Shown here piece after piece: positions 5,490 through 56,530 of a stretch of DNA of 64,000 bases; the first letter of the stretch is position 1, and each line of letters opens with the position of its first letter. Source of the DNA: an uncultured virus (IMG/VR IMGVR_UViG_3300044638_000550) (taxonomy: Duplodnaviria > Heunggongvirae > Uroviricota > Caudoviricetes). Position numbers and translations under genes: made by a program. Below the pieces are notes generated by a model, which did no database searches, was not told the DNA's origin, and worked only from the letters and a program-made list of their open reading frames with translations. The stretch is from the IMG/VR virus record IMGVR_UViG_3300044638_000550; one strand, 5' to 3'.

Positions 5490-5774
5490 TCATTCCTCCA
5501 TTACAAAACAAACATCTTGCCAACTCATCTTGAGTAAGCGCTCGTCATTGTGCTTGATTTCTTCAAACTTTAGGTATTCGTCTTTGTATTCTTTGGCAAA
5601 TGTGCCAAAAGTAATACGGTCACCAACATTTAAACCCTCGGCTTGGGCATCAGGGCCAACCGCAACCACAGTTCCACGGCTATCAACTTCTGCGGATTGG
5701 ATATAGAGGGTGTCGCTCACAAGGCGCTTTTCGGGGCGCACAAGTATTTTGTCTCTCAAGGGTTGCAAGTTCAT
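5490..5774 (-). CDS. groES: GroES-like co-chaperonin
   Basis: LQPLRDKILVR, GTVVAVGP, LNVGDRI motifs. Confidence 0.85.
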   Translation of the reverse strand: MNLQPLRDKILVRPEKRLVSDTLYIQSAEVDSRGTVVAVGPDAQAEGLNVGDRITFGTFAKEYKDEYLKFEEIKHNDERLLKMSWQDVCFVMEE

Positions 5775-8024: not shown

Positions 8025-8124
8025 AGTCTCCCGTAAGTTCAAGCGCTCTTGTAATGACAAAGTGGCTAAATTGTTGGCCTTCTCTAACCCGATCAAGGAT
8101 TTTGTGGGCTTCATAGTGATTCAT
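7888..8124 (-). CDS. Hypothetical protein overlapping the next gene
   Basis: MNHYEAHKILDRVREG...ALELTGD; conserved in B; coupled to upstream stop. Confidence 0.6.
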   Translation of the reverse strand: MNHYEAHKILDRVREGQQFSHFVITRALELTGDYEAIGSNGMDQAIQKEIFRGRQGRGPLLVSTSNSGHCQEARPGSC

Positions 8125-9185
8125 AATTTTGATAACCATTGTTCATACACCTGGTTAGCAATTTGAGCAGTCATAACTGGTGGAACGCTCATGCCAATCA
8201 TGTAATGTGGTTTTTGTCCACAAAAGTCATAATCCTGTGGATATGTACAAATGCTACAAGCCTCTTGTTTGCTTGTGTATTTGGGTGCATCAAACAAAAC
8301 AAGGCTATCTTCGTGTGATGTCAATGTGTAAGCCACTTTATTTTTATACAAATAAGTTTGGCTGAAATAGGCTTGTTTACCCGTTATGCGAACGCTTCCA
8401 GACAACATATCACCATCACCAAACTCCCTTGCATCCCATATTTTTGTCATGTTTTCGCTTAGATTTCGTCCTTCACAATCTTGAATTTCTCCAAATAAAA
8501 TCGGTTTTTCTTTAAATTCAAGGCGAAACTTAGGTGCAAGCGTAAACATATCGATGGATTCTAAAAATGGGTCTGCCAAGTCTTTACGCATGGCAACAAA
8601 GAAAACACGTTCACGTTTTTGAGGAACGCCCATTGTTGAAGCATCTAAAAGCCAATGCTGAACGATGTATCCGGCAGCATCAAATGCTTCATAAATTTTT
8701 GATACATAAGCCCTAGCTTCACCTAACAACAAGCCTTTTACATTTTCAGCAATAACTACTTTTGGTTGAAGTTTTTTAGCTAAATCAATAAAGTCAAAAA
8801 ACAATGTATCTAAAACTTGTTCAGCTTGGCCTTCACGAAATTTCTTTTCTTTTCCCCAATCAGCTTCTCGGCTACCTGCCATTGAAAAACTTGAGCAAGG
8901 CGGCGAACCATCAAGAATGTCTAAATCGTAAAGTTCTTTAGGTAAATCATCACGCAATTTAAATTGTTGTATAGGTTCAAGAAAAGCATATTTAGGGTTG
9001 TGGTTGGTTTTATAGGCTTGAATCATCTTTGGATCAATTTCATTGCAACCAAGAACATCAAATCCGGCAAGTTTGTAGCCCATAGTTGAACCACCACCAC
9101 ACGCAAAGCATGAAAAAACTTTGCCTTTATCTTTTGTAAAATTGGCCTCTGCCAATGTCCATTTATATGGAAATTTATGTGTCAT
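8121..9185 (-). CDS. C5 cytosine DNA methyltransferase (A only)
   Basis: FACGGG, GSPPCSSFS, ENV, QKRERVF motifs. Confidence 0.93.
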   Translation of the reverse strand: MTHKFPYKWTLAEANFTKDKGKVFSCFACGGGSTMGYKLAGFDVLGCNEIDPKMIQAYKTNHNPKYAFLEPIQQFKLRDDLPKELYDLDILDGSPPCSSFSMAGSREADWGKEKKFREGQAEQVLDTLFFDFIDLAKKLQPKVVIAENVKGLLLGEARAYVSKIYEAFDAAGYIVQHWLLDASTMGVPQKRERVFFVAMRKDLADPFLESIDMFTLAPKFRLEFKEKPILFGEIQDCEGRNLSENMTKIWDAREFGDGDMLSGSVRITGKQAYFSQTYLYKNKVAYTLTSHEDSLVLFDAPKYTSKQEACSICTYPQDYDFCGQKPHYMIGMSVPPVMTAQIANQVYEQWLSKL

Positions 9186-9928
9186 GCTTTACCCCTTAAT
9201 GCTGCCATCTTTGCCAAAACTTCTAAAGATGGGGGAACGGCTTTTTTGTCATCAGCCCTAATCTTTTCCAATGCGGCATCAGGCTTGTTATTCATTGGAA
9301 CTGTAAGCCTCACAACGTCATAAGGGTTTTGTTTGGGTGCGTTAGTGCTTCTAACCCAATTGCGCCAGGTTGCAAACCAATCTAACTTCACACCCTTTTG
9401 ACCTGCTTGTGCAATCCAATAATCTTTAAATTGGTCAAATGTTTTTGTTGGGTTAAGTTCAGGTCTTGTTTGTTGGCAAAATTCTTGCCATTCTTTTGGA
9501 AAACTAAAATCAGAAGCGAGGCGTTTGCCGAGTATCTTCTTTTGGTTATTGGTTATTGGTTTATGGTTTATGGTTGCTATTGGGGTAGCATTAGGGGGGC
9601 TAATAGCCTCCCCATTGGGGGGTGTTGCCCACCTCTTAGCTGCCCCACGTTTACCAGCTATTGAAAACTCTTTGTATTGCTTAATTTCCTTGTCAGCCCT
9701 TGGGTTTACAAAGCCTTCAGGTGTGGATAAGAAGAATTCGTTTAACACTGTCATCACATCTTCTTCATGGTCACGCATCCCAATTTGACGGGCAATATCC
9801 CTATGCTTTATTGGTTGCTCATGTAGAAAATAGAAATCAAGCAAGCGCCTATAAGCCAAATCTTCCAACAAAGAAAGATGGTGTGTGTGACTTTTATAGT
9901 CACCAATATGGAACTGGTAATAGTGCAT
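9182..9928 (-). CDS. Replication initiator with YdaU/DUF1376-like N-terminus
   Basis: MHYYQFHIGDY...LAYRRLLDFY; C-terminal FKDYW...DWFATWRNW; follows cro. Confidence 0.75.
   Translation of the reverse strand: MHYYQFHIGDYKSHTHHLSLLEDLAYRRLLDFYFLHEQPIKHRDIARQIGMRDHEEDVMTVLNEFFLSTPEGFVNPRADKEIKQYKEFSIAGKRGAAKRWATPPNGEAISPPNATPIATINHKPITNNQKKILGKRLASDFSFPKEWQEFCQQTRPELNPTKTFDQFKDYWIAQAGQKGVKLDWFATWRNWVRSTNAPKQNPYDVVRLTVPMNNKPDAALEKIRADDKKAVPPSLEVLAKMAALRGKA
9543..9650. repeat. Short tandem repeats and G-rich iteron-like repeats inside rep (putative origin)
   Basis: TTGGTTA/TGGTTTA tandem units followed by repeated ATT(A)GGGG motifs. Confidence 0.45.
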
Positions 9929-9953
9929 AACTCGCCTTTTCACCCCCTTAAAA

Positions 9954-10020
9954 GAAACTGCGGCAGGAGAGGGAGGAACTCTTTTCGGAACGGGGATCAA
10001 TCCATTCCTAGCCGTGTTTC
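9954..10020 (-). ncRNA. Three-way-junction structured RNA in rep leader
   Basis: Covarying stems versus B copy 43279-43345. Confidence 0.7.
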
Positions 10021-10028
10021 AAACAATC

Positions 10029-10184
10029 TTAATCCAAAAACCAATCTGGACGCAACAACTTTAATTGCCAAACCCTTGCTTGTGGCACAGTTTTCCATTG
10101 AGAAATAGCCGCTTGGCTGATGCCTAATAATTTGCCTAGCTCACTCTGTGAGCCAGCTAATGCAATAAACTTATCTTTATTCAT
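10029..10184 (-). CDS. cro: Cro-like HTH repressor, 51 aa (not in ORF track)
   Basis: Manual translation MNKDKFIALAGSQSELGKLLGISQAAISQWKTVPQARVWQLKLLRPDWFLD. Confidence 0.88.
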   Translation of the reverse strand: MNKDKFIALAGSQSELGKLLGISQAAISQWKTVPQARVWQLKLLRPDWFLD

Positions 10185-10247: not shown

Positions 10248-10318
10248 TTGACTCATGTATAAGTTGCCTTATAATTCACCCATGCCCTGAACTTCTTGGG
10301 GTCTTTTAAGGAAACAAA
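10248..10318 (+). promoter_or_regulatory. Early promoter/operator/hairpin/RBS cassette A1
   Basis: TTGACT-N16-TATAAT, palindrome TATAAG-N4-CTTATA, GCCCT..GGGGT hairpin, CTTTTAAGGAAA. Confidence 0.85.
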
Positions 10319-10573: not shown

Positions 10574-10645
10574 TTGACATTTCTTTATAAGATAACTTAT
10601 ACTTAAACCATGCCCTACTTTTGGGGTCTATTTAGGAGAAATCAA
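10574..10645 (+). promoter_or_regulatory. Early cassette A2
   Basis: TTGACA-N18-TATACT, TATAAG-N4-CTTATA, GCCCTA..TGGGGT hairpin, AGGAG RBS. Confidence 0.85.
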
Positions 10646-10855
10646 ATGAGCAAAAATGAAAAAATCTTTAATGCAATTCAAAAAGCAATTAGCAATGGAT
10701 CATGTGAATGGTCTGACATTGTTCAATCTGTTGAAGATGCAAAAATCCCTGTAAAAAATTGGATGGAAGTTCGTGGTGTTCTTCAATGGATGCGTAACGA
10801 AAAAATTATTGTTCGTGTAAAAGATGTTCATAAAGAACAATACATTGTTGTTTAA
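10646..10855 (+). CDS. Early hypothetical protein (possibly winged helix)
   Basis: AGGAG RBS; helical pattern ending in a beta hairpin. Confidence 0.7.
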   Translation: MSKNEKIFNAIQKAISNGSCEWSDIVQSVEDAKIPVKNWMEVRGVLQWMRNEKIIVRVKDVHKEQYIVV

Positions 10856-20916: not shown

Positions 20917-22626
20917 TTATGTCGCTTTAAGCATAGAGCCAAGTAATGCAGTATTGCCAAGGTTGCTCAAAAGGGCTGCATTGTTTGCGCCTGTTTGTGT
21001 GGCGTTGCTTGCCAAAGCGCCACCGATACCAGTTGCAAGATTGGCTGTGTTCAAACCGTAAGCATTTGCTGCGCCAATACCTTGACCGTAACCTTGAGTC
21101 AAATTGCCACCGTAGTTGGATGCCAATGAACCAAGGTTAGAACCGTAGTTTGCACCCAGGTTAGCCAATTGACCAGCTGAAGTGCTGCCAATTTTAGCCA
21201 TGTCTGACAAATTGCTATAAATGTTTTGGCGCTGCGTATTGAAGTTGTTAAACGCATTTTGATATGCGTTGCCAGCATAGTCTTGGGTGTAACGTTGCAG
21301 ACCTTGCAGCGCATTACCGCCCAAAGCACCACCACTCATGTTGCCAGCACGCTGGTTAGCCATCTGGCCTTGAGCCAATTGGAATGCGTAATTAGGCGCT
21401 AAGTTAGCGTTAAGGTCAGCATTCGTAAATTGACGATTGAAATAATCTGCATTTGCGCCCAAACCTGAAGCGCCCTGGCTTCCAATGCTTTGATAAGGTT
21501 GCTGATAGCCAACTTGTTGAGCATATAAATCATACAAATTGCCAGATGTGTTTTTGTAGATATTGGCTAAATCTGTGCGGTTAGCAGTACCTAGATTTTG
21601 AGCATTCAAATAAGCATTTGCCAGGTTAGAGCCAGCTTGTGTGCCGTATTGGTTAATCAGGTTTCTAGCATCAGTAATTCCAGCCTGGTTAGCCGCAGCG
21701 CCCAAACCGCTACCAAGCGCAGACAAACCCAAGCCTGTTGCAAGGCTAGTGCCTAAAGCAGAACCCACGCCAGTTCCCAAGCCTGTGCCGACACCAGTTG
21801 CCAACCCCGTACCTACGCCAGTTGCTAACCCGCCAAGTCCAGTACCAAGTCCCGCACCAACCCCTGTTCCAAGGCCAGTACCAACTCCTGCGCCAAGACC
21901 CGCACCCGTTCCCGCACCTATCCCTTTGCCTAATGCAGCTTGACCGCCTAAACCCGCCATTGCACCCGTACCACCCAATGCACCTAAAGTGCCAAGGTTT
22001 GTGCCACCAACGGTTGAACCTAATGCAGCGTCAGCGCCAAAAGCGCCCGCACCCGCATTTGCCAATTCAAAAGCGCCTAAGTCACCCATTGCAGAAGCAC
22101 CTGCATTAGCCGCTTCAAAAGCAGACCCTGCGCCTGTGCCACCACCAAACAGACTATCAAAACCACCGCCAAGACCGCCAAACAATAAAGCAGAGCCAAG
22201 TGCAAATTCTTTTAGACCACTATCAACTTTTTGTTGTGTGCCTTGACGTTGTAAAGTGCCATCAGGGTTGTATTGGTTATAACTACCGCCTGTTTTGTTT
22301 TCGCCAACTTTATAGGTGTAAACATTTTCAAGACCGCCAATTTGTTGGTTTTCACCGTCACCAATTGTTTGATATTGAGGCTGAACAATTGTGTCGCCAA
22401 GAGTTACTGATTGACCAGGCGGGATGGTAGCCGCAACTCTGGCTGCAACTTCACCAACAGGCACACCGACAACCCTAGCCATTTGATCAGGGGAAACACC
22501 GTATGTTTCCATTGCCTTGGCAATTTGAGCATCACTCATGCCTGGGCTTGCCGCCAACGCATCTTTGACTTGTTGATCTGTATAACCAACAGTTTTAGAA
22601 ACTAATGAATTTATTGTGTTGTCCAT
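20917..22626 (-). CDS. Pilot/DNA transfer protein (gp7-like) with Gly-rich repeats
   Basis: PNYAFQL.QG...GGNAL..L..Y.Q.YA motif; GLGTG repeats. Confidence 0.7.
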   Translation of the reverse strand: MDNTINSLVSKTVGYTDQQVKDALAASPGMSDAQIAKAMETYGVSPDQMARVVGVPVGEVAARVAATIPPGQSVTLGDTIVQPQYQTIGDGENQQIGGLENVYTYKVGENKTGGSYNQYNPDGTLQRQGTQQKVDSGLKEFALGSALLFGGLGGGFDSLFGGGTGAGSAFEAANAGASAMGDLGAFELANAGAGAFGADAALGSTVGGTNLGTLGALGGTGAMAGLGGQAALGKGIGAGTGAGLGAGVGTGLGTGVGAGLGTGLGGLATGVGTGLATGVGTGLGTGVGSALGTSLATGLGLSALGSGLGAAANQAGITDARNLINQYGTQAGSNLANAYLNAQNLGTANRTDLANIYKNTSGNLYDLYAQQVGYQQPYQSIGSQGASGLGANADYFNRQFTNADLNANLAPNYAFQLAQGQMANQRAGNMSGGALGGNALQGLQRYTQDYAGNAYQNAFNNFNTQRQNIYSNLSDMAKIGSTSAGQLANLGANYGSNLGSLASNYGGNLTQGYGQGIGAANAYGLNTANLATGIGGALASNATQTGANNAALLSNLGNTALLGSMLKAT

Positions 22627-24867: not shown

Positions 24868-25499
24868 TATGTTATTTCTCCATATCTTTCACCATCCCGA
24901 ATTCTGCGGATAGTGGATTCGCCAACGCTGTAGCGCCTGGCTATCTCGGCAATATAGTGATGTGGCAATAATGCTCGTATTTCTCTGACTTGATCTTCAG
25001 ATAAAACACGCCTTTTTAAATTAGCCAAACCCGTTTTAGACTGGCTCATTTTACGCTTTGTTTCATCAGAAAGCACTACACCTTTACGGGGTGACGTAAC
25101 GCCTTTGCGGGTAATTGCCCACTTAGCTTTTTGCTCATCTGAATGGGTTTGGCCTTTAAAGTTAACGCCCCATGTTGAAGCGCCAAACTTATTGCCCTTC
25201 ATTTTTTCTCTGTGGGTTTCTGTATGCTTGTAACCTGATGCACCTTCACCGCCATCAGTCATGTTGATCAACTTAATTCCAAGTTTTTTGTTTTGATCAA
25301 TACATTCAGATTCAACCAAAAATGCCAATTCTTCATCAACATCTTTAACAACAAAATCAATTTGCAAACCATGCTTGGCAACAACATTTTTCCAATATTG
25401 ACTGCGGTTGCATTTTGTAAAGGCACGCTTACCTTTACCCTTCCCAATGTAAAAAATTGAGTTAGTGTCTGCTGTTTTATGTTGATAAACGTAATACAT
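24867..25499 (-). CDS. Free-standing GIY-YIG homing endonuclease with NUMOD3 repeats (A only)
   Basis: YYVY...[23 protein letters not shown] / HSDEQKAKW / [10 protein letters not shown]. Confidence 0.88.
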
Positions 25500-25524
25500 A
25501 GTTCTAATGTTATTTAGAAATGTA

Positions 25525-26505
25525 CTAAATAAAGCCTCCGGTGAGGATCCAGCCTGCGTCCTTTGACTTGTTAACCAACAAGGCATCAGGATAACGTGCC
25601 ACTTGCAATGGCGACATATTGGTGCGTTTCAGGGTAGCTTTGGCTTGCCCTGCAAACGTCTGAATCATCGCAATTTGCGTTGCAGAGGCTTTGCCATACA
25701 TGGGCATTAAACGCTCTGCCAAACACCATCTGAGAGCCATTGAATAGCCTTGTGGCAGCGCTATGTCCTCATACATTGAGTCGTAACGGCTAAACAAGGT
25801 ATTTGCAAACAAGTGCATTTCGCCCTGGGAGGGGCTAGGCCAAATAAATAGATTGCCCGAATCAGCGCCTGGGTTAAAGTAAACCGCCTTGGGCCACGGG
25901 CCACTTAGCGTCTTTAAACCAATCATTTGATAACTGTGCAGTTCCAAAACCGACATTGGGTAATCAAGTCCACCGCCTGTAATCGGCTGACCGTTAGATG
26001 TGGTGTTAACCCTGACAAACGCAGAATCAATGTTTAGTGGCTTTTGGTAGTAAGCGGTGATTGAAGTGGATGCAACGGTTTGATTGATGTTGACTTGGTA
26101 AGTGCCTGTTTCATTGATGTTGCCACCCGCACCCGTCAAAAATTGCGTAATCTTTGTTCCCGCTGTGATTCCTGTGCCACTTAAGGTTTGCCCTTGGGCA
26201 ATAGCGCCTGAAGCTATGGCAGTCACGGTCAGGATATTTCCTGAAATTGAGCCTGTGAAAGACGCACCGATAAAGTTTTGAGTCGATGGGTTAGGGCCAA
26301 TTGTGTATTGGGTTTGTCCTGAAATGACGGGGCAAATGATTTCTGTGACATTGAAAACCATCATGTTTTCGTTTGACCATTGGTCAATTATGTCGTTCAG
26401 CATTTCAAACGCATCAAGCGCTGCGTCAGGAGTCGGGGTTTCACCAGCTTCTAATGCGCCAATGTCTTTTAGCGCTCGGCTAACAATGTCAAAAGGCACA
26501 GCCAT
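25525..26505 (-). CDS. P22 gp4-like head-tail adaptor with inserted beta module
   Basis: [20 protein letters not shown]...[16 protein letters not shown]. Confidence 0.8.
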
Positions 26506-39137: not shown

Positions 39138-39328
39138 TTTGCCTCTCTAGCCAAAACTGCTTTGTTTAATCCCGCAGCCAGGCGTTCAGCAAAACCCTTG
39201 TTCTCTAAATCAAAAATTCTTCCTTCTTTGTAATCAGAGAACTTTTCCTGATGTGCCTCGGTAGATGGCATCGGAGATTCTCTCCTTGCCGCCAATGCCG
39301 CTGCCTCTAACTCGCTCAAGTGTTTCAT
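39134..39328 (-). CDS. Small protein overlapping the kinase 3' end (B only)
   Basis: AAGGAGG RBS before MKHL; ATGA coupling to next gene. Confidence 0.55.
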   Translation of the reverse strand: MKHLSELEAAALAARRESPMPSTEAHQEKFSDYKEGRIFDLENKGFAERLAAGLNKAVLAREAK

Positions 39329-40115
39329 GTAACCTCCTTCGTACTTCATTTTCCTCTAGTTTAGGTAGCTTGTCAAGCTGGCTTGCAATAGCCTTACCCT
39401 TACCTTTGGAGTTATCAACAATTTGAATGTTTACCTTGGGGTTGCCCTTGTATTTCTTTTGAAGTTCCTCAATGACCTGGCGTGCGCCAATGTGAGTCTT
39501 TAAATGTTCTTCAATTGGAACGGTGCGGCCTGAACCTTTTTCCTTTTCCATGCGGCTGGCCCTGCTCAATGCGCCAAACTCCAACGCTTCAGCTGGGTCA
39601 CGGTAAGTGTAGACAATACGAACCTTGCGCTTGGCATCTAATGCCTGTTTGATCTTTTTGTCAGCAGAGTCAAACTTGTTCATGTTTGTGTCGTAAATCA
39701 TCTCCGACCGTTTTAGGGCGGGATCGACACTTTCCAACAAATCTAACGCTGTGGTTTTGCCAGCGCCTGTGCCGCCAGCACTAAAGACAACGGTGTTATC
39801 CATGCCTTTAGGTGTGGGGTTCTTTAGCTTTTCCGCATACAGCTGTTTCATAAAAGTGCTAGATGGCTCATGCACATCAGCTGACCTGGTGCGGTCTGAT
39901 CTGTACTCAGGCGACATTTCCCTGGCTACGTCAGTATTAATAATGCGCCCGCCCTTTGACTCAGGATGCGCTGCATATTCCTGAATCAACTGTGGATATT
40001 GACTTGCCAAGCGCTGAAAATACGCTTGTTCAATAGGGTTAGCAGGGGCAACCGCTTGCGCCCTTTGAGGGGCTGGCTGTCCCATCCCCATCATGGAGGA
40101 CAGGGAGACAGCCAT
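39234..40115 (-). CDS. Zeta-toxin-like P-loop kinase (B only)
   Basis: AGGTGAGKTT P-loop, YDTN, R..GRTVP, VDNS motifs. Confidence 0.75.
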   Translation of the reverse strand: MAVSLSSMMGMGQPAPQRAQAVAPANPIEQAYFQRLASQYPQLIQEYAAHPESKGGRIINTDVAREMSPEYRSDRTRSADVHEPSSTFMKQLYAEKLKNPTPKGMDNTVVFSAGGTGAGKTTALDLLESVDPALKRSEMIYDTNMNKFDSADKKIKQALDAKRKVRIVYTYRDPAEALEFGALSRASRMEKEKGSGRTVPIEEHLKTHIGARQVIEELQKKYKGNPKVNIQIVDNSKGKGKAIASQLDKLPKLEENEVRRRLHETLERVRGSGIGGKERISDAIYRGTSGKVL

Positions 40116-42179: not shown

Positions 42180-42565
42180 TTTGCGTATTGCTTTTTCATA
42201 GCAGCCAATTTTGCAAGCGCCTCTGCTCTAATCCTGTCGCTTTCAATTTGTTCGTGCAGCGTTTTCTTTCGCTCAATCAAAACTTCAGTTGGCGGTTTAA
42301 CAGGGATTGACGGGCCTTGGTTGCACATATCCCGAAAAGCCAATGCGCTGGGGGGAAAGTCTTTGTCAAGTTTGTCAAGGGCAAAATCCAGGCTTGGCTT
42401 GTAGGTCAAAAATCTGCCCAGGCATCGTTTCCATGTTTCACGCACCAGCGTTGGGTCAACGTCTTGCCAATGGGTGATAAACCGTGAACCGTAAATGGCG
42501 TTCATCATTCCAAAGATATAATCAAAGCCTGAGTCGGCATCACAAAAGTCGTTTTCGTTCCACAT
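42176..42565 (-). CDS. Putative helicase loader (lambda P-like; B only)
   Basis: IF..M..IYG.RF...W and FPPS...F..MC pattern, directly after rep. Confidence 0.55.
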   Translation of the reverse strand: MWNENDFCDADSGFDYIFGMMNAIYGSRFITHWQDVDPTLVRETWKRCLGRFLTYKPSLDFALDKLDKDFPPSALAFRDMCNQGPSIPVKPPTEVLIERKKTLHEQIESDRIRAEALAKLAAMKKQYAK

Positions 42566-43247
42566 TTTCAGCCTCCAAAATTACAGTCTCAGGTTTAGCC
42601 CAGAATGGCGTTTGTGGGATTGATTTGCCCCTGGTCAACTCTGCCATCACGTTTTGACGTTCCTCAGAACGGGTTAATTTTTCTTTCACCCATGCAGCCT
42701 TGAATGTTTGCCAGTTCCTGACAACAATTTCATTCAATGCTTCCTCAAGTGTCCAGCCAGCCAACTTTGCCTGTCCAACAATTGCATCCATCACCCGTTC
42801 AGTAATTTGCGCTCGCCTGGCTTTTCTTTGTTTGACAAATGAATTCCAAACTTCAAGCGTAACGCCTTCAGGCGGTTTTGCCTCTTTCTTTGTCTCTGTC
42901 TCTCTCTCTGTCTCTCTCTCTGTCTCTGGGATAGCAACTTGATAGCGTTCTGCTAGCATATCACTAGCAACAACAAAAAACCCGTTTGAAATCAACGGTT
43001 GAAGCCCTTGCTGGTATTCTTTTTCTGAAATGTGCAGCCTAAACACCAGTTCATCTAATGAGCCATCAAAAACACCGTCTTTTGACTCACTTGCAAGCAA
43101 CCAAAGCATAGGTGCAAGCGCCTTGCTAGCAATAGGCAAGCGCATAAATGATCTGTCGTTTAACAAATCACGGTGAAGTTTTATCCAAGGGGGACAGCGG
43201 TCTTTGTAATGTTGAAAGACTGCCCAATTTTTGGGCTGTAAAAGCAT
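42540..43247 (-). CDS. Replication initiator (not alignable to A rep)
   Basis: KNWAVFQHYKDRCPPWIKLHR start, ETER repeat linker, W..F..QRK..R C-domain. Confidence 0.7.
   Translation of the reverse strand: MLLQPKNWAVFQHYKDRCPPWIKLHRDLLNDRSFMRLPIASKALAPMLWLLASESKDGVFDGSLDELVFRLHISEKEYQQGLQPLISNGFFVVASDMLAERYQVAIPETERETERETETKKEAKPPEGVTLEVWNSFVKQRKARRAQITERVMDAIVGQAKLAGWTLEEALNEIVVRNWQTFKAAWVKEKLTRSEERQNVMAELTRGKSIPQTPFWAKPETVILEAENVERKRLL
42892..42970. repeat. TCTCTG-type microsatellite and TAGC repeats inside rep (putative origin)
   Basis: Encodes ETERETERETET; adjacent TAGCA repeats. Confidence 0.5.
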
Positions 43248-43278
43248 AATTTTTCCTCGCACAGTCCTCCACTTTAAA

Positions 43279-43345
43279 GAAACAATCGGCAGGCGGGGAG
43301 GCTCGCTTTTCGATAGGGAGATCAAGCCCCATCTAGCCGTGTTTC
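43279..43345 (-). ncRNA. Three-way-junction structured RNA in rep leader (B)
   Basis: Covaries with 9954-10020. Confidence 0.7.
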
Positions 43346-43353
43346 AAACAATT

Positions 43354-43512
43354 TTAAACCATAAACCAATCAGGCCGCAATGCTTTTAATTGCCACACCC
43401 TAGCCTGGGGAACTGTGTCTCCCCATTGGCTGATGGCTGCTCTTGTAATGCCCAGCAGCTGTGCCAGGTTCTTTGCAGACCCAGCGTTTTTTATAGCTTG
43501 CAATTTATCCAT
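43354..43512 (-). CDS. cro: Cro-like repressor, 52 aa (not in ORF track)
   Basis: Manual translation MDKLQAIKNAGSAKNLAQLLGITRAAISQWGDTVPQARVWQLKALRPDWFMV. Confidence 0.88.
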   Translation of the reverse strand: MDKLQAIKNAGSAKNLAQLLGITRAAISQWGDTVPQARVWQLKALRPDWFMV

Positions 43513-44763: not shown

Positions 44764-44837
44764 ACTTTAACTATTAAGCTAGCTTACAATCACATCATGC
44801 CCTAGCAAATCGCACAGGGTCTTTTAAGGAAATCAAG
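44761..44837 (+). promoter_or_regulatory. Early cassette B2
   Basis: TAGACT-N18-TACAAT, TAAGCTAGCTTA, GCCCT..AGGGT, CTTTTAAGGAAATC. Confidence 0.8.
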
Positions 44838-54457: not shown

Positions 54458-56530
54458 TTATGTCGCTTTGATCATAGAGCCAAGCAAAGCCGTGTTGCCA
54501 AGGTTGCTCAATGCGGTTGCGTTGTTAGCGCCACTTTGTGTCGCATTGGTTGCCAAAGCTGATCCTGTACCTACGGCAAGGTTAGCGGCATTCAAACCCG
54601 CTACGTTGGCGGCATTGACACCCGTAGCATAATTGTTTGTCAAGTTACTACCAAACGTGTTAGCCGCATTGTTCAAATTGCTACCATATTGGTTGTAAGC
54701 GCCTTGCATTGTGTTGGCATTGTTGACCATATTGCCAGCATAAGCATTAGAGCCACTTAGTAAGTTACTTCCATATTGGTTGTAAGCATTTTGCATCTGA
54801 CCCGCATTTGAAACCCTAGCGTTTCCATAGTTACTAGACAATGACCCCAAGTTTCCACCTAATGTATTGCCAAGACTTACTAATTGACCGCTAGATGTTG
54901 TTCCAATATTTGCCATGTTTGACAAAGTGTTGTAGATGTTTGATCGTTGATCTTGAAAATTTTTGAACGCATTTTGATAAGCGCCACTTGCATAGTTTTG
55001 TGTGTAGTCTTGCAAACCTCTTAATGCATTTCCACCTAAAGCACCACCACTCATATTTCCAAGGCGTTGATTAGCCATTTGGCCTTGACCTAATTGGAAC
55101 GCATAGTTAGGCGCTAATTCGGTATTGAGATCAGCCGTTCCAAATTGCTTTGTGAAATAGGGCGTATTCGCCAAAATTTCTGTTGAGGCTCTTTTACCAA
55201 TGTTTTGATAAGGTTCTTGATAACCAACTTGTTCGTCGTATAAATTATTTAGATCAGTTTTTGTATCTTTGTAAGTGTTTTCCAACGCTGTATTCGTATC
55301 GCCATAAACACCCGCTTGTGCATTTATGGTGTTGTTTAAATTAGTATTTAAATTTAAATAATTATTGGCTAAATTTCTATTTGTGTCACCATAAACACCC
55401 GCTTGGGCATTAATGATGTTGTTCAAATTGGTGCTTTGGTTTGTAAAAATGTTGTTTAAATCTCTACGCCCCGCAGCGTTTAAGTCCCTTGCATCCGCAT
55501 AAGTGCTTGTTAACCTATCATTGGCTCTTGCTCCATACTCATTGATCAAGTTTCTAGCATCGGTAATGCCTTCTCGGTTGGCAATGTTTCCAAGCAAATT
55601 GCTACCAGCAGCTACTGCCAATCCAGTTAAAGGATCAATCAATGTTTTTGCCGCATTAGCCGCATTAGCTACTGTGTTTGCCGTATTAACTGCATTACCC
55701 GCATTAGCCACATTTGCTGCTGTGTTTGCACTAGCACCCGCATTAGCAAGTTCAGAAGCACCCAAGTCTGACATTGCAGTTGCCCCAGCGTTTGCCGCTT
55801 CAAAAGCAGAACCCGCACCCGTCCCCGCCAAAGAATTAAGAGCCGTACCGCCTTCAAAAGCGCCCGCACCCGCATTAGCTAATTCAAATGCAGAACCAGC
55901 GCCTGTGCCAGCTAAAGAACTAATTGCAGAACCACCCTCAAAAGCGCCCGCACCTGCGTTTGCTAATTCAAATGCAGAACCCGCCCCTGTTCCTGCCGCA
56001 CCTGTTCCAGCAAATACACCATCAAAAACACCCGCACCACCAGCCACGCCTAATATGGCGGCTTGCACCACTGGGTCTTTGAGCATTTCTTTCATGCCGC
56101 CAAAAAATGACAAATCTTTTTTGGTTTTTACAGTATTTACAAACTCGCCATCTCCACTATAAATTTGTACTGGCGTTCCAACAGGGGCCTTATAATTAAT
56201 ATCGCCATTGCTTTTAGACATGGCAAAACCCTCAAGAGGGCCAATTTGCTCATCCATGCCAGAGCCAGTTGTTCTGTATTGAGGGGCGATAACAGTATCG
56301 CCAAGTGTTACTGAATTGCCAGGAGAAATCGTAGCCGCAACCCTAGCGGCTATTTTTCCCTCTGGAATATTCGCAACCCTAGACATTTGTTCGGGCGAAA
56401 TTCCACTGCTTTGCATTAACTCAACAAGTTGAGAATCATTCATGTTTGGGTTAGCCAACAACTTACTTACAACTTGTTGATCTGTTAAACCAATACTTTT
56501 GGTCACTAATGAATTTACTAGGTTATCCAT
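54458..56530 (-). CDS. Pilot/DNA transfer protein (B), repeat-expanded
   Basis: Homolog of 20917-22626. Confidence 0.7.
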   Translation of the reverse strand: MDNLVNSLVTKSIGLTDQQVVSKLLANPNMNDSQLVELMQSSGISPEQMSRVANIPEGKIAARVAATISPGNSVTLGDTVIAPQYRTTGSGMDEQIGPLEGFAMSKSNGDINYKAPVGTPVQIYSGDGEFVNTVKTKKDLSFFGGMKEMLKDPVVQAAILGVAGGAGVFDGVFAGTGAAGTGAGSAFELANAGAGAFEGGSAISSLAGTGAGSAFELANAGAGAFEGGTALNSLAGTGAGSAFEAANAGATAMSDLGASELANAGASANTAANVANAGNAVNTANTVANAANAAKTLIDPLTGLAVAAGSNLLGNIANREGITDARNLINEYGARANDRLTSTYADARDLNAAGRRDLNNIFTNQSTNLNNIINAQAGVYGDTNRNLANNYLNLNTNLNNTINAQAGVYGDTNTALENTYKDTKTDLNNLYDEQVGYQEPYQNIGKRASTEILANTPYFTKQFGTADLNTELAPNYAFQLGQGQMANQRLGNMSGGALGGNALRGLQDYTQNYASGAYQNAFKNFQDQRSNIYNTLSNMANIGTTSSGQLVSLGNTLGGNLGSLSSNYGNARVSNAGQMQNAYNQYGSNLLSGSNAYAGNMVNNANTMQGAYNQYGSNLNNAANTFGSNLTNNYATGVNAANVAGLNAANLAVGTGSALATNATQSGANNATALSNLGNTALLGSMIKAT

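Follow-up and report, generated by a model that had tools for sequence, protein, structure and literature searches.

A divergent form of the int-alpA RNA ahead of phage replication initiator genes: a candidate translational switch

Two tandem phage genomes and their control regions

The window, a stretch of 64,000 nucleotides from an uncultured virus of the Caudoviricetes (IMG/VR record IMGVR_UViG_3300044638_000550), carries two related phage genomes, A and B, in tandem with an offset of about 33 kb. Gene order runs on continuously and no N spacer lies between them. Their collinear blocks are 72-92% alike. The gene set identified with Pfam includes a P22-like portal and coat, a terminase, ERF or Sak, YqaJ, RusA, NinB and a lysozyme. 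On its minus strand each genome carries one cro-like gene and one initiator gene, with a small structured RNA between them. The features of the two regions are the following:

10029..10184, minus strand: cro-like gene of genome A, 51 aa (Pfam P22_Cro, E=3.4e-10)
10050..10055, minus strand: weak -35-like hexamer TTGCGT within cro, 18 nt from the -10 hexamer (3/6 to consensus; unlisted by the promoter scanner)
10026..10031, minus strand: -10-like hexamer TAAGAT of genome A, 5 nt ahead of the RNA (from the sequence)
9954..10020, minus strand (read 10020-9954): three-way-junction RNA, copy A, of the long-P2 int-alpA form and predicted to begin the rep mRNA
9987..10008, minus strand: P2 hairpin of copy A, loop palindrome GAUC at 9998-9995
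9967..9981, minus strand: P3 hairpin of copy A, 3 bp, loop UUCCUCCCU at 9978-9970
9943..9948, minus strand: site 1 of genome A, AGGGGG, complementary to the P3 loop, behind a four-U linker
9931..9937, minus strand: site 2 of genome A, AGGCGAG with a bulged C, placed where the ribosome would bind and likewise complementary to the P3 loop
9182..9928, minus strand: rep A, DUF1376-type initiator, 248 aa, ATG at 9928 (Pfam DUF1376, E=7e-20)
43354..43512, minus strand: cro-like gene of genome B, 52 aa, whose TAA stop opens the -10 hexamer
43356-43351, minus strand: -10 hexamer TAAAAT of genome B (from the sequence)
43279..43345, minus strand (read 43345-43279): three-way-junction RNA, copy B, P2 palindrome GAUC, P3 loop AGCCUCCC
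43255..43270, minus strand: sites of genome B, site 1 GGAGG at 43270-43266 and site 2 GCGAGG at 43260-43255
42540..43247, minus strand: rep B, initiator of a different family, 235 aa, ATG at 43247 (PHROGs phrog_26426, replication protein; phrog_678, O-like)

The two initiators differ. Rep A is of the DUF1376 type and matches a primosomal or replication initiation protein in PHROGs, while Rep B matches other replication families, and the two genes share no DNA similarity. Between 8.1 and 10.2 kb, the sole DNA similarity of the two genomes is the block 9944-10091, which holds the RNA and the end of cro. In both genomes the -10 hexamer takes its first three letters from the TAA stop codon of cro.

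A C5 cytosine methyltransferase gene (8121-9185) directly follows rep in genome A and is absent there in B; a Zeta-toxin-family kinase gene (39237-40115; Pfam, E=8e-15) is found in genome B only. The tail genes of genome A include a GroES-like gene (5490-5774; PHROGs, E=3.5e-6) and a homing-endonuclease-like gene (24870-25586), ahead of which the family covariance model described below has no match. A large virion gene of both genomes contains short internal repeats (55291-56038 and 22038-22141). All six TAAG-N4-CTTA palindromes of the window (10260, 10588, 43523, 43598, 44775 and 45077) lie within the two control regions, two of them in the spacers of near-consensus plus-strand promoters (10248-10275 and 10574-10603), and they are candidate Cro operators. 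An early-gene leader, CAUGCCC...GGGUC...AGGA, is repeated before plus-strand ORFs (10281-10312, 10609-10637 and 44796-44830), with further copies seen by eye in genome B. The Rfam family freshwater-2 weakly matches 10586-10648 (23 bits for a cut-off of 49.9).

Structure, family and genomic position of the RNA

A preliminary description of this DNA had proposed a three-way junction in both genomes, and every element of it is found at the proposed place. Copy A folded alone adopts this junction at -19.7 kcal/mol (z = -2.27), a modest value: 8 of 200 shuffles fold as well. A search pattern leaving free both loops and the P2 and P3 helices recovered at least 120 viral loci. The counts given here for listed elements derive from 122 records, corresponding to 110 unique elements with the window copies included, after exclusion of a false match (L008), two cut leaders (L012 and L095) and a locus in which no start was found (L035).

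Among 50 aligned members, 97.6% of the cells pair, with two-sided changes in all six P2 pairs and in two of the three P3 pairs; the covariation score was reached by none of 500 shuffles, a procedure that ignores relatedness. P1 was fixed by the search pattern in this set, and its covariation was taken instead from two sets gathered through the Rep proteins, in both of which it covaries. In the 73 of 80 loci parsed, P1 is CGGC/GCCG (42), UGGA/UCCA (28), CAGC/GCUG (2) or UGGC/GCCA (1), and 8 of 44 loci of the second Rep-collected set carry a variant GGAAU/AUUCC together with CAGC/GCUG. A seventh P2 pair is formed in just 46 of 70 unique P2 helices. Over 420 P2 cells G-U outnumbers A-C by 37 to 3, indicating that the minus-strand transcript is the folded molecule. 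A covariance model of the 50 members gives the window copies 78 and 77 bits and finds nothing further above 15 bits in the window. In these larger sets covariation extends to all three helices. A nested energy model of 109 full leaders keeps P1 in 63, P2 in 61 and the 3-bp P3 in 9, which suggests that P3 needs tertiary support. The junction letters UA / GAAAA / CU are nearly invariant while helices and loops vary; these letters belonged to the search patterns and also hold in the Rep-collected sets. That the element is a structured leader RNA is almost beyond doubt.

At the gathering level Rfam gives no match in the window. In E-value mode only, both copies match int-alpA (RF02996) over model positions 1-71 of 71, with 27.4 and 34.7 bits for a gathering cut-off of 35.8. 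This is by far the best Rfam match, and the junction UA / GAAAA / CU of the int-alpA consensus is present at full length in both copies. The preliminary description had pointed to Rfam, and especially to the c4 families; int-alpA is the sole match beyond chance. When 20 relatives were scanned, 19 matched int-alpA and nothing else, and one was above the cut-off. A long-form locus from the genome scan (L124) reaches 38.4 bits, also above it, and two complete records score 35.6 and 35.0 bits. The long-P2 members therefore form a continuum across the int-alpA cut-off. A pattern for the canonical form recovered 47 loci, of which 18 of the 19 scanned pass the cut-off, and two further patterns recovered 120 and 39 loci. 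We assign the window RNA with high confidence to a long-P2 subfamily of int-alpA; rather than a new family, it is a member of a catalogued one that lacks an explained function.

The window RNA has in common with int-alpA the three-way junction core C-UA-G ... C-GAAAA-G ... C-CU-G, a C-rich P3 loop and, downstream, a U-tract and a purine run. Members above the cut-off share with it the -10 box, a pair of loop-matching sites and palindromes in P2. The subfamily differs in the length of P2 (6 bp and a 10-nt loop, for 3-4 bp and 4-6 nt in int-alpA), in a P3 of 3 bp, in a P1 split by a bulge and in scores that mostly fall just below the cut-off. Moreover the gene behind it is a core initiator, in place of integrase/alpA islands or nucleases, and the RNA behaves as a leader rather than as the free-standing sRNA of the Rfam typing (Gene; sRNA).

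Weinberg et al. reportedly described 224 candidate RNAs in 2017, int-alpA among them. The name implies a position between integrase and alpA genes. This is not the arrangement here, where there is no integrase and the downstream gene is an initiator, and it does not define the family since members above the cut-off also precede many other genes. No paper on the function of int-alpA was found in the open literature; the term itself occurs in a presence table and, as wording for a gene order, in another paper. The name is absent from the main text of Weinberg et al. (PMC5737381). The leader position or a pseudoknot may already be described in the supplement of Weinberg 2017.

A TAnnnT motif lies 3-8 nt upstream of the RNA in 92 of 96 unique upstream sequences, at exactly 5 nt in 76 of them, compared with 26.1 +/- 4.2 in shuffled sequences. 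The consensus promoter scanner does not list this -10 promoter, so that the putative start site is deduced from the family. An initiator gene follows the RNA: one primosomal-protein family is matched by 63 of 75 downstream genes, and the N-termini following the 110 listed elements are DUF1376-like in 84 cases, of two other types in 12 and 5, and other in 9. The RNA precedes the initiator in 77 of 80 relatives of Rep A, with two copies partly deleted and one cut by a contig end. The three misses of the A set have another gene inserted before rep (two cases, one of them on the contig of L062, where the RNA heads the inserted gene) or a different RNA (one case). It is also carried by 78 of 80 relatives of Rep B, the two misses showing by eye the short-P2 form. 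Its conservation despite the replacement of rep, already suspected from the window, is therefore seen before two unrelated Reps. The association with cro that had been suspected as well does not hold: a Cro-like upstream ORF occurs in only 23-24 of 76 loci, a lower bound as upstream ORFs were picked mechanically, and the RNA is tied to rep. It is present once per genome in 23 of 25 records. Found on a core gene in nearly every relative examined, it appears to be part of replication control in an abundant group of uncultured phages.

Short-form members precede HNH nucleases in cultured Salmonella phages and, by eye, also other nucleases, tail chaperones and regulators. The phages SB28 and seszw are cultured carriers of this form. 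The long form has no match among the cultured phages of INPHARED. Of 21 genome matches nearly all lie on MAG contigs whose labels are mixed; bins labelled beta-proteobacterium and Burkholderiaceae contain two long-form copies that precede DUF1376 genes, and unrelated bins contain others. In one genome bin (G003) a long form precedes a DUF1376 gene and, on a separate contig, a short form with different loops precedes an HNH-like gene (L428/L429); the bin has a third match as well. Two close relatives of genome A carry clean deletions, one of cro and the 5' half of the RNA (L351:600-680), the other of P3, the leader and the start of rep (L354:660-720); they are defective genomes or assembly errors. 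In one run of a freshwater metatranscriptome, searched as assembled contigs (share 0.07), a contig of a relative covers 9950-10150 at a depth of 3.8, which shows neither strand, ends nor level.

Loop sequences and their complementary sites

The loop motifs had been described as invariant. This is true of the two window copies, which happen to share one class, so that each loop pairs as well with the other copy's leader as with its own. The family includes five P2 loop classes and, among the listed long-form elements, 41 P3 loop sequences, and two sites in the leader vary along with the P3 loop. Leaders of RNAs with the loop AGACCC have GGGUC twice, those with CCCACUUU have AAGUGG twice, and those with CCGCAUCC have GGAUGC and GGAUCGCGG. 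Over the 41 loop types, a P3 loop on its own leader reaches -9.3 kcal/mol at site 1 and -7.8 kcal/mol at site 2, whereas foreign P3 loops on the same leaders reach -5.7 and -4.6 kcal/mol. This advantage was equalled in none of 2000 permutations at either site, the permutations leaving ancestry uncorrected. In 28 of the 41 types at site 1 and in 22 at site 2 the own loop scores among the top tenth, and site 1 is the stronger site in only 27. The same preference is observed in 96 short-form types, again at both sites and equalled in none of 2000 permutations. Complementarity between the P3 loop and a purine run in the rep leader, first noticed in the window copies, is thus borne out by covariation over 41 loop types, and the second complementary site and the -10 box extend that first description. 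About a dozen short-form members have no loop-leader match. A short-form subgroup without such a match (L193, L194, L200, L204, L210, L212, L213, L222, L234, L240 and L274) keeps the junction and precedes one shared gene family.

The two duplexes overlap in the loop letters that they use, which limits a P3 loop to one site at a time. Site 1 ends 17-20 nt before the AUG, presumably at the edge of the footprint of the initiating ribosome, and site 2 begins 11-12 nt before it. The distance from junction to AUG is 40.4 +/- 2.3 nt (n=103) and 40.5 +/- 4.1 nt (n=72, a set chosen for having two sites) in the two subfamilies, with a site-to-site spacing of 12.5 and 13.5 nt. At site 2 the match to the Shine-Dalgarno consensus is often weak (median -4.2 kcal/mol). 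A bulged C is found at site 2 in 16 of the 41 types and at site 1 in one. It is likely that the P3 loop gates translation. The earlier suggestion of a controller of initiator synthesis is retained in part: the structured RNA and the complementarity of its P3 loop to the rep leader stand, the invariant loops and the link with cro do not. A comparison of P1 with linker length, considered as a means to separate action in cis from action in trans, is uninformative because the negative correlation is partly built in.

In the 110 listed elements the P2 loop consists of a fixed U followed by CAUG (34), GAUC (30), AGCU (23), AAUU (14) or UGCU (9); 101 therefore carry one of four palindromic tetramers. 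A palindrome is present in 17 of 20 unique P2 loops (8.3 +/- 2.0 when shuffled) and in 25 of 41 short-form P2 loops (10.8 +/- 2.5 when shuffled), while the P3 loops, used as a control, contain one in 26 of 168 cases (36.2 +/- 4.7 when shuffled). The short-form loops add the palindromes GGCC, CGCG, CUAG, GUAC, GCGC and UGCA, and some have none (CAAAA, AACAA, UUUUU, GAGA). Palindromic tetramers are under-represented in the flanking DNA (O/E 0.48-0.92). Switching of palindromes through restriction avoidance was considered and rejected, no pattern being found between P2 class and avoidance in the flanks. A partner for the P2 loop was sought within -250/+280 nt and none was found (5.24 versus 5.20 +/- 0.06 for foreign loops, n=101). 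Duplex energies of the P2 loops are class-selective, save that UGCU pairs well with AGCU and AAUU, and self-pairing of the AAUU class is weak (-0.8 kcal/mol). There is little restriction on which P2 class goes with which P3 class (35 of 45 combinations occur among the listed elements; association p = 0.09). The simplest reading of the palindromes would be self-pairing between two molecules, and the balance tips slightly towards this pairing being of functional importance.

Control of initiator synthesis: a proposed mechanism and its alternatives

The RNA is real, a divergent form of a catalogued motif for which a specific and testable mechanism can be formulated. It most likely sets the amount of replication protein made, and RNA-RNA dimerisation probably tunes the switch. 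We propose, with a probability of roughly 0.4, that it acts as a translational switch on initiator synthesis in which leader dimers would repress. Transcription would start at the first or second base of the RNA. The P3 loop, when paired with site 1, would leave the ribosome site free and, when paired with site 2, would block it. Through the palindromic P2 loop two copies of the same class could kiss, and this docking would bring a second P3 loop so that both sites would be filled. The best partner would be a junction without sites of its own, hypothetically a decay remnant or a prematurely ended transcript. Initiator synthesis would then fall as phage RNA accumulates, and P2 class and P3 loop together would constitute a specificity code between related phages.

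Such a free partner stays hypothetical because no intrinsic terminator is called at P1 by the scanner and the U-tract is short: four U follow P1 in copy A, at least four U are found in the 6 nt after P1 in 70 of the 110 listed elements, and the tract is shorter still in the GGAAU/AUUCC variant. Repression is favoured as the direction since a dimer would offer two P3 loops for two tandem sites at a fixed spacing, and since the genes that the RNA precedes elsewhere (nucleases, chaperones) likewise need an upper limit on their expression; that repression rises with RNA dose is put forward as a tentative proposal. It is more doubtful whether the int-alpA RNAs at large are protein-free gene-dosage sensors, dimerised through P2, in which the P3 loop of the partner would shut the ribosome site and the P2 x P3 code would set mutual silencing. 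If this were true, a self-kissing leader reading its own concentration would be a regulatory device of a new kind and a source of orthogonal parts ready for use. The device would set the initiator level and the P2 x P3 code would decide which co-infecting relatives silence each other, much as in plasmid incompatibility but through RNA, in phages without CI or integrase. The covariation of loop and sites makes this orphan motif precisely and cheaply testable.

The RNA had also been suggested to stand in for CI/CII control. This idea finds no support, as neither CI nor integrase is found among the scanned ORFs of the window or in 24-25 related records. A tyrosine integrase occurs in 0 of 24 related phage records (19 of them at least 90% complete), and S24 repressor and resolvase domains each in 0 of 25; the records thus give no hint of a lysogeny decision that the RNA could take over. 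Lysogeny is not a prerequisite for controlling initiator dose.

Free RNA would be dispensable for a two-state throttle or timer acting in cis only, in line with the lack of a called terminator. Its loop would take site 1 during transcription and site 2 later, giving each mRNA a limited translation window, and the P2 palindrome would have another job or none. All the data on loop-site covariation and spacing fit such a timer, as do the earlier transcription of site 1 and the fact that it is the stronger of the two in more types. It leaves 12 different P2-loop palindromes unexplained, however, and site 2 offers no general toehold: its pairing register reaches further 5' in the loop than that of site 1 in 12 types, equally far in 15 and less far in 14. 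We consider this alternative unlikely.

Dimers could also activate translation, the loop of a monomer lying on its site 2 (off) and, in the kissing dimer, each loop on site 1 of the partner (on), which would generate a threshold or a delay with an outcome similar to that of IsrK. The linker from P1 to site 1, of about 5-6 nt, is perhaps too short for pairing in cis, the preference of the bulged C for site 2 goes in the same direction, and a phage precedent is known in which a short isoform activates its own long mRNA (PMC4825925). This scheme is less probable than the timer: P2 differs about twofold in length between the subfamilies while the site spacing is the same, which fits a fixed geometry in trans badly.

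Slightly less probable again is a riboswitch-like sensor in which a ligand or host protein bound to the conserved UA / GAAAA / CU junction would choose the site. Its attraction lies in a junction that is nearly invariant amid variable helices and loops, but these letters were part of the search patterns (though also kept in the Rep-collected sets) and the palindromes are left unexplained. No riboswitch family in Rfam matches the RNA. The downstream proteins are unrelated, so that a downstream product is an unlikely ligand, and the genes served (initiators, HNH and GIY-YIG-like nucleases and tail chaperones, partly identified by eye) suggest no metabolite. Finally, a DNA-level element (origin hairpin, iteron pair or methylation site) or a simple attenuator is improbable: the RNA does adjoin the initiator gene, a U-rich tract follows P1 and the P2 tetramers are also methyltransferase-type sites, but G-U exceeds A-C, the distances to the -10 box and the AUG are fixed, the RNA also precedes non-replication genes, P2 class is unlinked to palindrome avoidance in the flanks and, for the attenuator, no terminator is called.

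The proposed dimer-repressed switch resembles several known RNAs in part. The c4 RNA of phages P1 and P7, which we take to be RF01695, likewise pairs through its loops with two sites on the same strand. No c4 match was obtained in Rfam for the window copies at E <= 10 or for 20 relatives at E <= 1. In phage P4, loops of the CI RNA pair with two same-strand sites (seqA/seqC) and limit replication genes, according to PMC4825925. Both systems use two separate loops with targets up- and downstream, and processing releases their RNA in a stable small form, whereas the window RNA has one loop that matches both sites, each of them downstream, has no upstream target for its P2 loop and shows no sign of lysogeny genes. 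The IsrK locus of prophage Gifsy-1 produces a short and a long isoform, the short one acting in trans on translation of the long one (PMC4825925). The likeness lies in this trans action, which is hypothetical for the window RNA; IsrK has a real terminator, activates, and matches the window RNA neither in sequence nor in Rfam, and no role for a palindromic loop is described in the passages considered. Self-complementary hairpin loops are also shared with the dimer-linkage loops of retroviruses, for which palindromic loops and GACG tetraloops are described (PMC516450); among 79 unique short-form P2 helices, 8 are closed by a GACG loop. This is an analogy only, from other organisms and for another purpose.

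In one near-complete record, which lacks the junction, the space from a -10 box of the same kind to the first gene holds another RNA. This second RNA has at least 120 matches, 85 of them unique among those listed (L368:108-228 and L431-L550), and among the matches listed it mostly precedes the same initiator types. It has no match in Rfam. The loop of its 5' hairpin, UUGGCGG, matches an internal CCGCCAA, its linker covaries with the loop of a second hairpin (23 pairs, 0/2000), and a closing stem is followed by 8-9 U in 115 of 119 listed members, immediately ahead of the start codon. In this it resembles an attenuator. That an unrelated RNA can occupy this slot suggests that these phages need RNA control of their initiator. 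Fremin et al. (2023) list three candidates from IMG/VR, DNAVirus_187, _230 and _4653, within 25 bp upstream of DUF1376 genes (PMC10690425). They are alike in listed position, the passages considered giving no mechanism, and one of them may correspond to the RNA described here or to the second RNA of the same slot.
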